This document shows, in pieces, positions 4,961-64,000 of a stretch of DNA of 64,000 nucleotides (within the stretch, counting starts at the first letter, position 1; every line of letters begins with the position of its first letter). Source of the DNA: a virus. Taxonomy: Duplodnaviria; Caudoviricetes. Location: the IMG/VR virus record IMGVR_UViG_3300012984_000010. One strand, written 5' to 3'. The position numbers were made by a program, and so were the translations under genes. The notes below the pieces were generated by a model. That model saw nothing but the letters and a program-made list of their open reading frames with translations, was not told where the DNA came from and did no database searches.

Positions 4961-5230
4961 ATGGAATTTAGAGCGGACACGAACCTGCCTGAGGAAGAGT
5001 TGCTGGAGATCGGCACGTACCTGGGCGGAATCCTCGCCAATGAGTTGAAGCGTAACCCTTCAGAAGTAAGGGTCAGGGTTGAGATGCAGGAGTCTCCGGA
5101 AGATCCTGAAACTATCGACATCCTCTACCATATCAGCATCAACAACCAACCTCCGAACGATCTGGAACTGTACCAAGCCCACCAGCTCTTTGAGAAGTTG
5201 ATGGGTTACGAAGAAACGATGCTCAATTGA
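4961..5230 (+). CDS. Hypothetical protein
   Basis: Strong SD GGAGGAGG before ATG 4961 (start revised). Confidence 0.7.
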   Translation: MEFRADTNLPEEELLEIGTYLGGILANELKRNPSEVRVRVEMQESPEDPETIDILYHISINNQPPNDLELYQAHQLFEKLMGYEETMLN

Positions 5231-61004: not shown

Positions 61005-61508
61005 ATGATGAACCGCCGATCCATGCTCCAAGCCCTCACTTGTCTGCCGGTACTCTCGATCACCTTACCCGCCGCAGCAAAAGATACCGGACCAAAAACT
61101 CCCTCGACAGGCGAACGGTTCCTCTCCGGCATGCAATACCTGCTCGATAATCACCAAAACATGGTCGACTACATGGAGCGCTTCGCCACATTGGAACCCA
61201 CAGCCAGGCAGGTGGTCGATAAGGTCCAACGGACCACCATCGCGTTGGCCCAACAACTCAAGCAGCAAGGTCTGGTCGAACACACCAAGCCTTGGAACAA
61301 TTGTAGCGAAGGAGCTGTGTTGAGGTGGGCCGATCGATTTGGCGACATGGGGCTAAATTCCCACCTGCCCTACTGTAGGCTGAACCAACCTAGGCTGGTC
61401 CCAGCCATGAGGGCGTATGAGGCCGCCAGATGGGAGTTGAAGAAATATTGCTGGGAACGCAGCGCAAAGACCCTCCGTAGTCCTTGTAGGCCGGATTATT
61501 TGGGTTGA
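61005..61508 (+). CDS. Putative Tat-exported protein
   Basis: MMNRRSMLQALTCLPVLSITLPAAA-KD; class B motif (60991-60996) 8 nt before ATG. Confidence 0.7.
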   Translation: MMNRRSMLQALTCLPVLSITLPAAAKDTGPKTPSTGERFLSGMQYLLDNHQNMVDYMERFATLEPTARQVVDKVQRTTIALAQQLKQQGLVEHTKPWNNCSEGAVLRWADRFGDMGLNSHLPYCRLNQPRLVPAMRAYEAARWELKKYCWERSAKTLRSPCRPDYLG

Positions 61509-61804
61509 GACACCGTTGCTTCATCGAAGACCATGTCGAATATTCGACTGTCGCCTGTTTCTTCGGAGCCTTGGGTTTCCTGGGCCGCTCAACCTTCTCC
61601 CTGGTAATGCGTCAGGTAGCTGCTCGTACGCAGGACTATTTTCCCGTCATCCCGCCTACATCTCCAGAGCTGATGCCCATGAGCGTCTACCTCCGCCGCT
61701 TCAACCACCGTCAGCTTCATGGCCTCGAAACGTTGATCAGTCAGATCTTTGAAGTTTACAGGCTTCACCATCCGCCAAGTCTAGCACATTTGCGCCAAAA
61801 ATAG
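61505..61804 (+). CDS. Hypothetical protein
   Basis: TTGA overlap with the upstream stop. Confidence 0.45.
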   Translation: MRHRCFIEDHVEYSTVACFFGALGFLGRSTFSLVMRQVAARTQDYFPVIPPTSPELMPMSVYLRRFNHRQLHGLETLISQIFEVYRLHHPPSLAHLRQK

Positions 61805-62002
61805 GCCGATCCAAAATTTTTGGATCCTATGGGCGATAGCCTCTGATTCAGAATCGAGCCAAAAATAGGCCGGGGTCAAAATCCGGATAGATAGGGGGAT
61901 TTGACCTATTTGCCGTTTTGAGCGGGGCGCATACTGGATACGCCATTTTGGGAGATCTGTACAGCCCGAACGGATTATCGATCGGTTCGGCCAGACGGTC
62001 AT
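61781..62002 (-). CDS. Hypothetical protein
   Basis: ORF. Confidence 0.45.
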   Translation of the reverse strand: MTVWPNRSIIRSGCTDLPKWRIQYAPRSKRQIGQIPLSIRILTPAYFWLDSESEAIAHRIQKFWIGLFLAQMC

Positions 62003-62073
62003 TTAGCGGCGGCTGGTGGGCCGGCCCGTAGCTTCGCTATGGGGAGCCAGGCCAGTCGGCCGTTGATAGTTGT

Positions 62074-62277
62074 TCAGCCTACACGGTAACGGACCGCTAC
62101 TGTCCCGACCCCTCGCTTGAGTTGTTGAAGCCTCAGTTGACTCTGCTCAAGCTGCCTGGTCAGACCAGCATACTGACGTCGAAGCTCCCAACGTTCAAAC
62201 TCCAGCGTCACCACCCACCAACAGACCATGATGAGTAGCAGCCAGGCATCTAGGATGTCGATCAGCTGTTGTTTCAT
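62074..62277 (-). CDS. Small protein with TM segment and coiled coil
   Basis: Hydrophobic residues 5-26, then a heptad-like helix. Confidence 0.6.
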   Translation of the reverse strand: MKQQLIDILDAWLLLIMVCWWVVTLEFERWELRRQYAGLTRQLEQSQLRLQQLKRGVGTVAVRYRVG

Positions 62278-62280
62278 CTA

Positions 62281-62350
62281 GGATACTTGCTGGGATTCGA
62301 ACCCAACTCTCCACCCTTATCGGGTGTGTGCACCAGTACACCAAAGTATC
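62281..62350 (-). tRNA. tRNA-Ile(GAT)-like RNA with a 5-nt anticodon loop (non-canonical or pseudo)
   Basis: Acceptor GATACTT/AAGTATC; D arm GTGT-ACTGGT-GCAC; anticodon arm CACCC-GATAA-GGGTG; T arm TTGGG-TTCGAAT-CCCAG; no encoded CCA. Confidence 0.75.
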
Positions 62351-62418
62351 GATGCCAAGACTTGACTCGGTCCTAGCTGCCTCTTGGGCCAGCTAGGCGC
62401 TCCATGCATTCTGATCTA

Positions 62419-62446
62419 TATAACGGATCAGGTGGGGGAAAGTTAA
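62419..62446 (-). promoter_or_regulatory. Class A promoter driving the tRNA-Ile-like RNA
   Basis: TTAAC-N15-CCGTTATA; leader contains hairpin CCTAGCT..GCC-CAAGA-GGC-AGCTAGG. Confidence 0.75.
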
Positions 62447-62817
62447 TAGAGCTGTGGGCCTTTTTGAGGGGGTCTGGGTGGGGCCTCAATATTCGGCTGA
62501 GGCTTGATCGTATCGATCACCAACCTGATGGCTTGATCGAGCGTCAGGCACCCTATGCCGTCCGTCTGACCGTCTGACGCCCTCTTGAGCCGGTAGCCCG
62601 TCCCCTCGGGGACGATCGTGAAGCTGTTCAGCACCATACGGATACGATGATCCGAGTCATCGTAGTGAGAGCCTCCGATCAGTCGATCGTCACATAGGTG
62701 AACGTGGAGGCCCGCCAGTTTGAGGCGTTGGTAGGCGGATTCGATGGGCGTGAGGACATCCTCAGGGGTCCACTGTAGATCTTGAGCTATGTGGAGGATG
62801 GCGGGGCTACGTTTCAT
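62443..62817 (-). CDS. Hypothetical protein
   Basis: Class B motif (62829-62834) 11 nt before ATG. Confidence 0.7.
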   Translation of the reverse strand: MKRSPAILHIAQDLQWTPEDVLTPIESAYQRLKLAGLHVHLCDDRLIGGSHYDDSDHRIRMVLNSFTIVPEGTGYRLKRASDGQTDGIGCLTLDQAIRLVIDTIKPQPNIEAPPRPPQKGPQLY

Positions 62818-62837
62818 GATCCAAATCTTACACCAAA

Positions 62838-63050
62838 CTAGCTAGATTGAGTATTGAGATACTCAATTCGATTGATCTCACTGTGGATCGGGCATAAGAT
62901 CAGCACGTCTCCATAGCCTGGTTGTCGCTCCCACCTGCAACCGCATTGGGCCACATCGCCAACGAAGTTCCGGTTGAATGGATCGCCGTGTGGGATGGTC
63001 CGATCGTGAGGCTGGCCAGATGGGGCATGGCAGAAGCGGCACTTAGCCAT
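62838..63050 (-). CDS. Small Cys/His-rich protein
   Basis: CRFC...H...CGC...CPIH; ATG 63050 or 63059. Confidence 0.65.
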   Translation of the reverse strand: MAKCRFCHAPSGQPHDRTIPHGDPFNRNFVGDVAQCGCRWERQPGYGDVLILCPIHSEINRIEYLNTQSS

Positions 63051-63246
63051 TTGGTTCAAGCTGTTCTTTGGCGTCTTGGATCAGGGCGAGGATGTGGGTA
63101 TGGTTGGTCCGCTTAGGGTCGAAGTTGGCGGGGAACTTGATCGGTTTGCTGTAGAAGTGCTCTGGATGGGGATGGGCCAGGAACTGTTCGTAGTCGAGGA
63201 TCGCTTTCTCGTAGTAGGCTCGCCGTTCTTCGGTCAGTTGTGCCAT
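63043..63246 (-). CDS. Hypothetical protein
   Basis: ORF. Confidence 0.65.
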   Translation of the reverse strand: MAQLTEERRAYYEKAILDYEQFLAHPHPEHFYSKPIKFPANFDPKRTNHTHILALIQDAKEQLEPNG

Positions 63247-63322
63247 TTGCTCACGGCGTGGGCCTCGAACCCACTTCTCTCCCTTTTAACAAGGGTCGCT
63301 CTTCCTGTTGAACTAGCCGCAA

Positions 63323-63414
63323 ACCGTCGAGGGGGAGTTGAACCCCTGGGGCGACGTCTCGCCCGATTCTGAGTTATTGGATCAGATGCTGGCAACCGGC
63401 CAACTATTCGACTG
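63323..63414 (-). tRNA. tRNA-Sec/allo-tRNA-like 92-nt RNA with a 9-nt anticodon loop (non-canonical or pseudo)
   Basis: Imperfect acceptor CAGTCGAA/CTCGACGG; 6-bp D stem GTTGGC-CGGTT-GCCAGC; TCTGA-TCCAATAAC-TCAGA; variable arm GGGCGA-GACG-TCGCCC; T arm GGGG-TTCAACT-CCCC; no CCA. Confidence 0.65.
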
Positions 63415-63450
63415 GGGGCTGTGGGTCATGACTCCGTTGCCCTTGATTGA

Positions 63451-63478
63451 TAGTACGGCCGGGGTGGGCGGGAGTTAA
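63451..63478 (-). promoter_or_regulatory. Class A promoter driving the Sec-like RNA
   Basis: TTAAC-N15-CCGTACTA, about 35 nt upstream of the cloverleaf. Confidence 0.7.
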
Positions 63479-63690
63479 CGCTTTACTCCAACTTTTAGGG
63501 TCCTACCATTGTCTGGTTTTGGAGGTACATACTCCTTTAGACCCCCAATGTATATTTGTTCATGACGGATCTCCTTACTCCAAGGATTCCACCATACACA
63601 CTTTGCAATACGTTCACCCGTCTGGAAACTTTCGATTACCATGATGGGGCTGTCCGCTGTCTTCAACGTAACGAGGTCTCCTTCTTGCAT
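63475..63690 (-). CDS. YodC/DUF2158-like protein
   Basis: GDLVTLK...P.MVI...AKCVWW; SD AAAGGAGG; class B motif at 63716-63721. Confidence 0.7.
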   Translation of the reverse strand: MQEGDLVTLKTADSPIMVIESFQTGERIAKCVWWNPWSKEIRHEQIYIGGLKEYVPPKPDNGRTLKVGVKR

Positions 63691-63763
63691 GAGAACCTCC
63701 TTTCATCCCCTCACTTACACCAGCCCTACAGCTCGTTCGGGTCAAAACGAGCTGTGAAAGCAG

Positions 63764-63994
63764 CTAGATAGCCGTCAGCCGCACCACCTCAATCGATGTC
63801 CCGCTAGCCCAGGTGGTGCTTGTGCGGCCGTCCTCGAACGTGAACCTCATCGTTTCGTTTGAATTAAGCACCGTCTTTACGACAAGTGTGGGCTTCTGAT
63901 AGCAGGGCCACCGATCGCCTGGTCGCACCATACAGGCGGGGATCCGCATCGTCTGAATCTGGATCGAGTCCGATTCCCCTGTCATCTCGGACAA
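63764..63994 (-). CDS. Hypothetical protein (start may lie beyond the window)
   Basis: RIPACMVRPGDRW...MRFTFEDG. Confidence 0.55.
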   Translation of the reverse strand: MSEMTGESDSIQIQTMRIPACMVRPGDRWPCYQKPTLVVKTVLNSNETMRFTFEDGRTSTTWASGTSIEVVRLTAI

Positions 63995-64000
63995 CAGGCG

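Follow-up and report, generated by a model that had tools for sequence, protein, structure and literature searches.

A tRNA-shaped RNA with a five-nucleotide anticodon loop in a huge soil phage: a possible t-element-like processing module in front of a small membrane-protein gene

Introduction

RNase P, RNase Z and the CCA-adding enzyme recognize the helix formed by the acceptor and T stems of a tRNA, together with its elbow, and not the anticodon loop. The classic case of tRNA-shaped processing signals is the tRNA punctuation model of mitochondria. With it belong the t-elements of plant mitochondria and those of Haloferax volcanii, the latter described by Holzle et al. in 2008 and 2012, as cited in PMC4326828. 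The Haloferax t-elements are tRNA-like and are cut by RNase P and tRNase Z, which creates the ends of neighbouring RNAs (PMC4326828). Phages, in turn, are known to encode tRNAs whose altered anticodon loops allow them to escape or neutralize the tRNA nucleases of the host (PMC10264068), and the tRNA-Lys of phage T5 reportedly acts against PARIS (PMC11464382).

The RNA element considered here lies on the minus strand of a 64,000-nucleotide stretch of DNA, hereafter the window, from a huge soil phage of the Caudoviricetes (Duplodnaviria; IMG/VR record IMGVR_UViG_3300012984_000010). An earlier note, made from the sequence alone, had drawn attention to it as a promoter-driven RNA resembling tRNA-Ile, with a shortened anticodon loop. 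By analogy, the Haloferax t-elements are its closest documented parallel. As in the t-elements, a tRNA-shaped, non-decoding structure would be embedded in a longer transcript and adjoin an RNA whose terminus it would set; what RNase P and RNase Z require of a substrate is likewise intact, and the predicted product is an mRNA almost without a leader. In contrast to the t-elements, however, the structure belongs to a bacterial virus, is preceded by a dedicated promoter and a leader of 62 nt, and retains a full four-arm cloverleaf with a recognizable tRNA-Ile anticodon arm, and its cleavage is a prediction.

Results

Fold of the element

The minimum-energy fold of the 70-nt element is a cloverleaf on the minus strand, composed of the following parts:

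62281–62350, minus strand: tRNA-shaped RNA element, from its fold, ARAGORN, an Rfam search and strain comparison
62350–62344 with 62288–62282, minus strand: acceptor stem of 7 bp, GAUACUU/AAGUAUC
62341–62328, minus strand: D arm, with a 5-bp stem and the 4-nt loop CUGG
62326–62312, minus strand: anticodon arm, CACCC-GAUAA-GGGUG, with the loop GAUAA at 62321–62317
62307–62289, minus strand: T arm, with a 6-bp stem and the loop UUCGAAU
C62281, minus strand: discriminator, an unpaired C

The 5' strand of the acceptor stem is followed by U8-G9, the D arm, a single linker base and the anticodon arm, and a variable region of 4 nt separates the latter from the T arm. Every stem pair is formed (23/23), with no mismatch and with two G-U pairs, and the free energy of −26.9 kcal/mol (z = −3.2) was equalled by only one of 200 shuffled sequences. 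The D loop contains GG, the T loop is canonical, and the acceptor and T stems together provide a stack of 13 bp (7 + 6 bp). At its 3' end, the element reads C-UAG-AUG in the window strain. The fold reproduces the full cloverleaf, the perfect 7-bp acceptor stem and the TTCGAAT T loop that the earlier note had described, as well as the anticodon arm CACCC-GATAA-GGGTG with its 5-nt loop, and the statement that no CCA is encoded holds true for the window strain.

Relative to a canonical tRNA, the 7-bp acceptor stem and a T loop of the form UUCRANY are present, whereas the 7-nt anticodon loop with U33 is not. A loop of 5 nt is too short for a standard anticodon, and the modelled structure is that of a non-decoding tRNA-shaped RNA.

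Likeness to known tRNA classes

Both ARAGORN and the covariance models of Rfam, which the earlier note had suggested as checks, were run on the element. ARAGORN names it 'tRNA-Tyr(ata)', with a 4-bp anticodon stem and G at position 33, a call that requires the loop-closing C-G pair to open in order to yield the 7-nt loop CGAUAAG. The Rfam tRNA model RF00005 scores it below the gathering threshold of 29 bits, and the best score within the tRNA clan is obtained with the tRNA-Sec model (RF01852), at 24.4 bits where the gathering score is 47. This result fits the 13 stacked acceptor/T pairs and the long D stem with its short, 4-nt loop, features that the element shares with tRNA-Sec; the UCA anticodon and the long variable arm of tRNA-Sec are, by contrast, absent. 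Annotation pipelines overlook the gene, in the case of Rfam, or misname it, in the case of ARAGORN.

The earlier note had interpreted the anticodon arm as that of tRNA-Ile with C32 and U33 deleted. For the arm itself this interpretation stands, since the common tRNA-Ile(GAU) arm, CACCC-CUGAUAA-GGGUG, becomes that of the element upon removal of these two bases, and ARAGORN calls tRNA-Ile(gat) once CT has been re-added to the loop in silico; as encoded, the arm offers no triplet in a 7-nt frame. It does not extend to the remaining body. The resemblance is confined to the 15 nt of the anticodon arm, while the D arm is non-standard, the T stem has 6 bp, the variable region has 4 nt, and position 73 is C, where the discriminator of bacterial tRNA-Ile is A73. 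BLAST comparison of the element with E. coli tRNA genes and genomes detected no similarity.

A further resemblance, to tRNA-His, arises from the ability of C at position 73 to pair with G at −1: in the ARAGORN register, G62350 becomes G-1 and pairs with C62282 as C73. The GUG anticodon of tRNA-His is lacking, and this tRNA-His-like pair is regarded as a lead rather than as a finding.

Promoter, leader and the abutting gene

The element is situated within a promoter-to-ORF unit, directly next to the gene that it would delimit, which is the position that a t-element would occupy. The remaining parts of this unit are:

62418–62446, minus strand: class A (ECF-like, AAC...CGT) promoter, one of 25 copies with a shared 29-nt geometry
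62446–62442, minus strand: −35 element of this promoter, TTAAC
62426–62418, minus strand: −10 element of this promoter, CCGTTATAT
62351–62412, minus strand: predicted 5' leader of 62 nt, from the start prediction and the fold
62397–62372 (8+2 bp) and 62370–62355 (5 bp), minus strand: leader hairpins predicted from the fold
62278–62280, minus strand: 3-nt spacer from discriminator to start codon, UAG in the window and CAC in a second strain (L010)
62074–62277, minus strand: gene for a small protein of 67 aa with one membrane helix and a coiled coil, its frame kept in L010
61808–61826, minus strand: terminator-like hairpin with a T run, the likely end of the transcription unit

The promoter at 62446–62418, which the earlier note had assigned to class A, is a true member of a family that comprises 25 copies of TTAAC-N15-xCCGTT(C/A)TAT, identically spaced, in the 64-kb window. 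In 20 of the 25, an ATG follows the −10 element by 4–7 nt, which implies that the corresponding mRNAs are leaderless. A second class of leaderless starts is also apparent, in which GGTGTA (extended −10-like, TGnTAnnnT) lies 9–11 nt before the ATG of many genes, such as those starting at 62817, 28362, 28398 and 59545, and Shine-Dalgarno motifs are rare overall in the window.

Transcription of the element unit is predicted to start near A62412, so that a leader of 62 nt would precede the tRNA shape. Prediction recovers both of the hairpins that the earlier note had placed in this leader, although the leader folded by itself shows no significant structure (z = −1.3). It carries one change in L010, at 62352 (position −2, T to G). 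Masking of the start codon by a CAUC:GAUG pairing with the leader was considered as well, and was dropped because L010 alters both sides of the pairing without compensation. A frame of 30 codons (62409–62317, minus strand) opens with an ATG 3 nt past the predicted start and closes with the UAA of the anticodon loop.

The ATG of the 67-aa ORF, at 62277, lies 3 nt past the discriminator, and its upstream context contains neither a Shine-Dalgarno motif nor a promoter of its own; AGGAGG or AAGGAG does precede some other internal genes in the vicinity at the usual distance, among them those starting at 63690 and 60475. No terminator was found between the promoter of the element and this ORF. The ORF can be considered a real gene, since its frame is intact despite 17 base changes relative to L010, at a pN/pS of about 0.4, and as judged from this comparison it is under purifying selection. 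The N-terminal third of the protein is a hot spot of change between strains. A weak match to the DivIC/FtsB type (Pfam PF04977, E = 0.001) suggests that the protein could be a small division-protein look-alike.

A parallel module upstream

Neither the abutting gene nor a parallel layout 1 kb upstream had been picked up in the earlier note. The second arrangement consists of:

63247–63478, minus strand: parallel module, from ARAGORN, Rfam, the promoter scan and folds, its block being kept in a relative (X5/X6, below)
63478–63450, minus strand: class A promoter of the parallel module, with no ATG at +1
63415–63323, minus strand: Sec-like tRNA-like RNA with a 9-nt anticodon loop
63322–63250, minus strand: borderline tRNA-Leu(UAA), at 29.3 bits in Rfam against a threshold of 29
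63043–63246, minus strand: second 67-aa gene, its ATG 3 nt past the discriminator of the tRNA-Leu, with no clear Shine-Dalgarno motif

The spacer between the tRNA-Leu and the ATG is again 3 nt long, with the sequence CAA. This tRNA-Leu(UAA) has a short variable region and G73, and its most stable fold forms a 5-bp stem with a pentaloop, CCCUU-GUUAA-AAGGG; it may still decode as a short-armed type, of which an example is known from Streptomyces (PMC6614811). When the element and the neighbouring tRNA-Leu were compared, they were not evident paralogues. A product 99% identical to the second 67-aa protein (63246) was found on a contig of 308,895 bp. In this module, too, a short frame, of 15 codons, ends within an anticodon stem, that of the tRNA-like RNA at 63415–63323.

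Strains and relatives

Over 261 bases spanning the element, five other assemblies (L001–L005), which come from different samples, match the window at every position, and the element itself is identical at 70/70 positions in these and in L010, from which it follows that it is not an assembly error. This result, together with the intact stems, bears out the view of the earlier note that simple decay is an unlikely origin, and speaks against the assembly error that the note had named as a possible objection, the same sequence being present in six assemblies and in L010. On the related point of whether relatives keep the 2-nt deletion, L001–L005 and L010 share the 5-nt loop.

Strain L010 is 98% identical to the window over 2.1 kb. 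Outside two variable patches, at 62170–62280 and 62575–62625, the background divergence between the two is only ~0.1%, and their identity across the element therefore says little about constraint. Two of the three spacer bases differ in L010 (UAG to CAC), and the ATG is retained. At positions 4990–5003 of L010, the sequence reads AAGTAT-C-CCA-C-ATG, such that CCA is encoded in the register that takes G62350 as G-1 and pairs it with C73, where the window strain has CUA.

The relative was recovered from runs X5 and X6 (wetland 2023 and soil 2024, respectively, which are possibly one data set filed twice) as a contig of 8384 bp, about 92% identical to the window. This contig covers 61908–62521, with the promoter, leader, element and downstream gene, and 63247–63464, with the upstream tRNA pair and its promoter. 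Between these RNA blocks, 725 nt (62522–63246) have been replaced by 635 unrelated bases, and one of the junctions falls at 63247, within the spacer between the tRNA-Leu and its ATG. As far as this contig indicates, the RNA blocks persist while the intervening gene cassette is swapped. In the window, the cassette holds ORFs of 124, about 70 and 67 aa; of the 124-aa gene, X5/X6 retains the final ~26 codons as well.

Across the element, X5/X6 shows no deletion, and its block contains six inserted bases, so that a loop of 5 or of 7 bases would fit the alignment. The upstream block shows only two deletions, at 63404 and 63388, which correspond to G12 and C28 of the tRNA-like RNA at 63415–63323, the outermost pair in its D stem of 6 bp. 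This compensatory co-deletion points to selection on the fold of the neighbouring tRNA-like RNA. The strain contigs also differ, some 2 kb upstream of the tRNA modules, in whether they carry a block that includes a 334-aa GIY-YIG-type gene (L001, L008, L009 and L010 versus L002–L004); the block resembles a mobile insertion of a homing endonuclease.

Distribution

As judged by sequence searches, the element is confined to one phage lineage. Pattern scans for the Ile-like pentaloop arm combined with the T loop found no occurrence in IMG/VR or in the GTDB species genomes, and other pattern scans of IMG/VR returned either 0 matches or unrelated T arms (L015, L016). Among GenBank phages, there was no match to 62000–64000 by megablast and blastn, nor to the 652-aa neighbour by tblastn; the 70-nt element itself retrieved chance pieces only, the best being a tRNA-Glu in LR756511. 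The immediate upstream neighbour was used in the same way:

62443–62817, minus strand: 124-aa gene, upstream neighbour of the element

Its product falls into a family without a name, made up of proteins of about 100 aa in 19 representative clusters. The motif GGSH.D is conserved among the members, which also have the C-terminal tail PQPNIEAPPRPP..GP..Y in common, and one of them (P0006) is a tandem duplication. A scan of viral contigs for this neighbour found no relative, and the sole return from a metagenome scan was a contig of 3147 bp. Downstream of the distant homologues in L011–L013 and L006, there is no tRNA-like RNA and no Rfam match, and other genes follow directly. A stretch of L006 that resembles a T arm does not form a tRNA fold.

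Discussion

Taken together, these observations raise the possibility, to which we assign a probability of roughly 40%, that the element is a t-element-like processing module for RNase P and RNase Z. The ECF-type promoter of the element would give rise to an mRNA for the 67-aa membrane protein, with the element in its 5' part. Removal of the 62-nt leader by RNase P, and a cut at or just after the discriminator by RNase Z or another 3' tRNA-maturation route, would then release a stable tRNA-like RNA of about 70 nt and leave an mRNA with its AUG 3–4 nt from the new 5' end. In the uncut transcript, the AUG would abut a stable 13-bp helix and would lack a Shine-Dalgarno motif; the cut would render the 67-aa gene translatable, in a phage whose promoters mostly yield leaderless mRNAs. 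Observed are the fold, the membership in the promoter family, the real gene next to the element, the parallel module and the strain comparisons; transcription, both cleavages and the effect on translation we infer.

What suggests such a module is that the parts read by the processing enzymes are intact, with fully paired stems, a canonical T loop and GG in the D loop, while the anticodon loop, which these enzymes ignore, is disabled. The setting points in the same direction. The promoter belongs to a genuine 25-copy family of which 20 copies imply leaderless mRNAs, the 67-aa ORF 3 nt past the discriminator is selected yet possesses neither a Shine-Dalgarno motif nor a promoter, and the twin 1 kb upstream repeats the order of an ATG-less promoter, two tRNA-shaped RNAs, 3 nt and a 67-aa ORF. 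Furthermore, both RNA blocks are kept in X5/X6, where the neighbour displays the G12/C28 co-deletion, and a precedent exists in the Haloferax t-elements (PMC4326828). The abutting promoterless gene and the parallel module favour a role in cis, and the released RNA may have a role in trans beside it.

Nevertheless, several observations sit uneasily with a processing module. Twenty other genes obtain a leaderless mRNA directly from their promoter, and since direct fusion of promoter and ATG is simpler, a detour of 130 nt would need a further reason. Nor would a leader of 3 nt be ideal, because added 5' bases weaken leaderless initiation, by ~2-fold per base in Caulobacter, and in E. coli a single base is inhibitory (PMC8459731). 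A gene directly against a tRNA is also seen elsewhere among compact phage genomes, such as L014, none of the sequencing runs matched to this stretch is an RNA run, and at a background divergence of ~0.1% the identity of window and L010 adds little. Finally, an encoded CCA is known to block RNase Z, and as L010 encodes CCA in the ARAGORN register, the 3' cut may differ between strains.

Of the alternatives, the one that survives best is that of a decaying tRNA-Ile, in which a 2-nt deletion killed a phage tRNA and the promoter, maintained for the downstream gene, preserves a remnant whose shape is unselected. We regard this as a serious though doubtful explanation. An arm that is the common tRNA-Ile arm minus CU, and that ARAGORN recognizes again as tRNA-Ile(gat) after repair in silico, is consistent with it, as is the confinement of the element to a single phage lineage, and divergence between strains is too low (L010) or unreadable (X5/X6) to prove constraint. 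Decay sits poorly, however, with the 23/23 intact stem pairs and with a body that is non-standard in several respects (6-bp T stem, 5-bp D stem with a 4-nt loop, C73); so many departures imply a history longer than that of one recent lesion. In addition, the two neighbouring tRNA-shaped RNAs also have odd loops (9 nt, and the GUUAA pentaloop), and X5/X6 has kept the block, at about 92% identity, with its adjacent genes swapped.

The intact tRNA body, the disabled anticodon loop and the possession of a promoter could also be explained by a mimic that acts in trans, the released RNA binding a tRNA-binding protein without being decoded, which is a broader form of the decoy put forward in the earlier note. 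Proposed partners are an anticodon nuclease, an aminoacyl-tRNA synthetase, a modification enzyme or a phage RNP, for example a Ro60-like particle. The tRNA-His-like G-1:C73 pair, with CCA then encoded in L010, fits this proposal, and there is precedent for phage tRNAs that overcome tRNA-cutting defences by means of their anticodon loops (PMC10264068; reportedly also PMC11464382). These nuclease-resistant tRNAs resemble the element in being phage-encoded and tRNA-shaped with a change in the anticodon loop; their loop, though, has 7 nt and still decodes, whereas the 5-nt loop of the element cannot. Y RNAs of the YrlA type, bound by Ro60/Rsr, offer a comparable case of a non-decoding tRNA mimic, here in a phage, but the element lacks the Ro-binding helix and the YrlA/Y RNA model RF02553 gave no match at E up to 10 in 61500–64000.

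Within the stretches examined, moreover, the element has no linked gene for a nuclease, a synthetase or a repair function, and we know of no anticodon nuclease that targets tRNA-Ile. The anticodon arm is the only Ile-like part of the element, its C73 contrasting with the A73 of tRNA-Ile. The absence of the arm and T loop from IMG/VR and GTDB genomes also argues against a widespread counter-defence device. A mimic thus seems rather unlikely as the whole explanation, although it is compatible with a processing module, since a processed RNA can also act in trans.

It is improbable that the unit is a cis-regulatory leader, whether with the anticodon arm as a boxB-like hairpin (5-bp stem, G-N-(n)-R-A pentaloop) that recruits a phage or host protein, or with the short ORF from 62409 to the loop UAA coupling translation to folding. 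Both GAUAA and the GUUAA of the neighbour would fit a GNRA-like pentaloop with its third base looped out, as described for the boxB pentaloop GACAA of P22 (PMC12550061). The window contains three hairpins of this type where 0.46 would be expected, two of the three being the 'anticodon' arms in question, but a count of three is small and equals the maximum among shuffles, no N-like protein was identified, and the tRNA-Ile arm accounts for the stem sequence without any boxB role. That the element is a working decoder with an odd loop, either as ARAGORN reports it in calling tRNA-Tyr(ata) (loop CGAUAAG, anticodon AUA) or as a frameshifting tRNA, is very improbable, given that it requires a 4-bp stem, G in place of the universal U33 and the disruption of a C-G pair present in the minimum-energy fold, that the Rfam tRNA model scores below threshold, and that to our knowledge there is no decoding tRNA with a 5-nt loop.

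Particular to the element are the combination of its own promoter, a tRNA-Ile arm minus two bases, the 13-bp stack, a gene 3 nt behind it and a twin module. As such, it is a clean addition to the growing set of phage tRNA look-alikes, some of which are already in the literature. If it is indeed a processing module, a bolder and, in our estimation, unlikely extension would be that the phage uses punctuation in the style of mitochondria, with host RNase P and RNase Z cutting promoter-driven, non-decoding cassettes to produce near-leaderless, swappable small genes, and with the disabled arms (GAUAA, GUUAA, the 9-nt loop) free to serve as protein handles or mimics.

The logic of tRNA punctuation is already known from mitochondria and haloarchaea. 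Should the predicted cuts occur, the element would provide a case from a bacterial virus in which tRNA-shaped punctuation feeds leaderless translation, and the expression of a phage membrane protein would depend on the tRNA-processing enzymes of its host.
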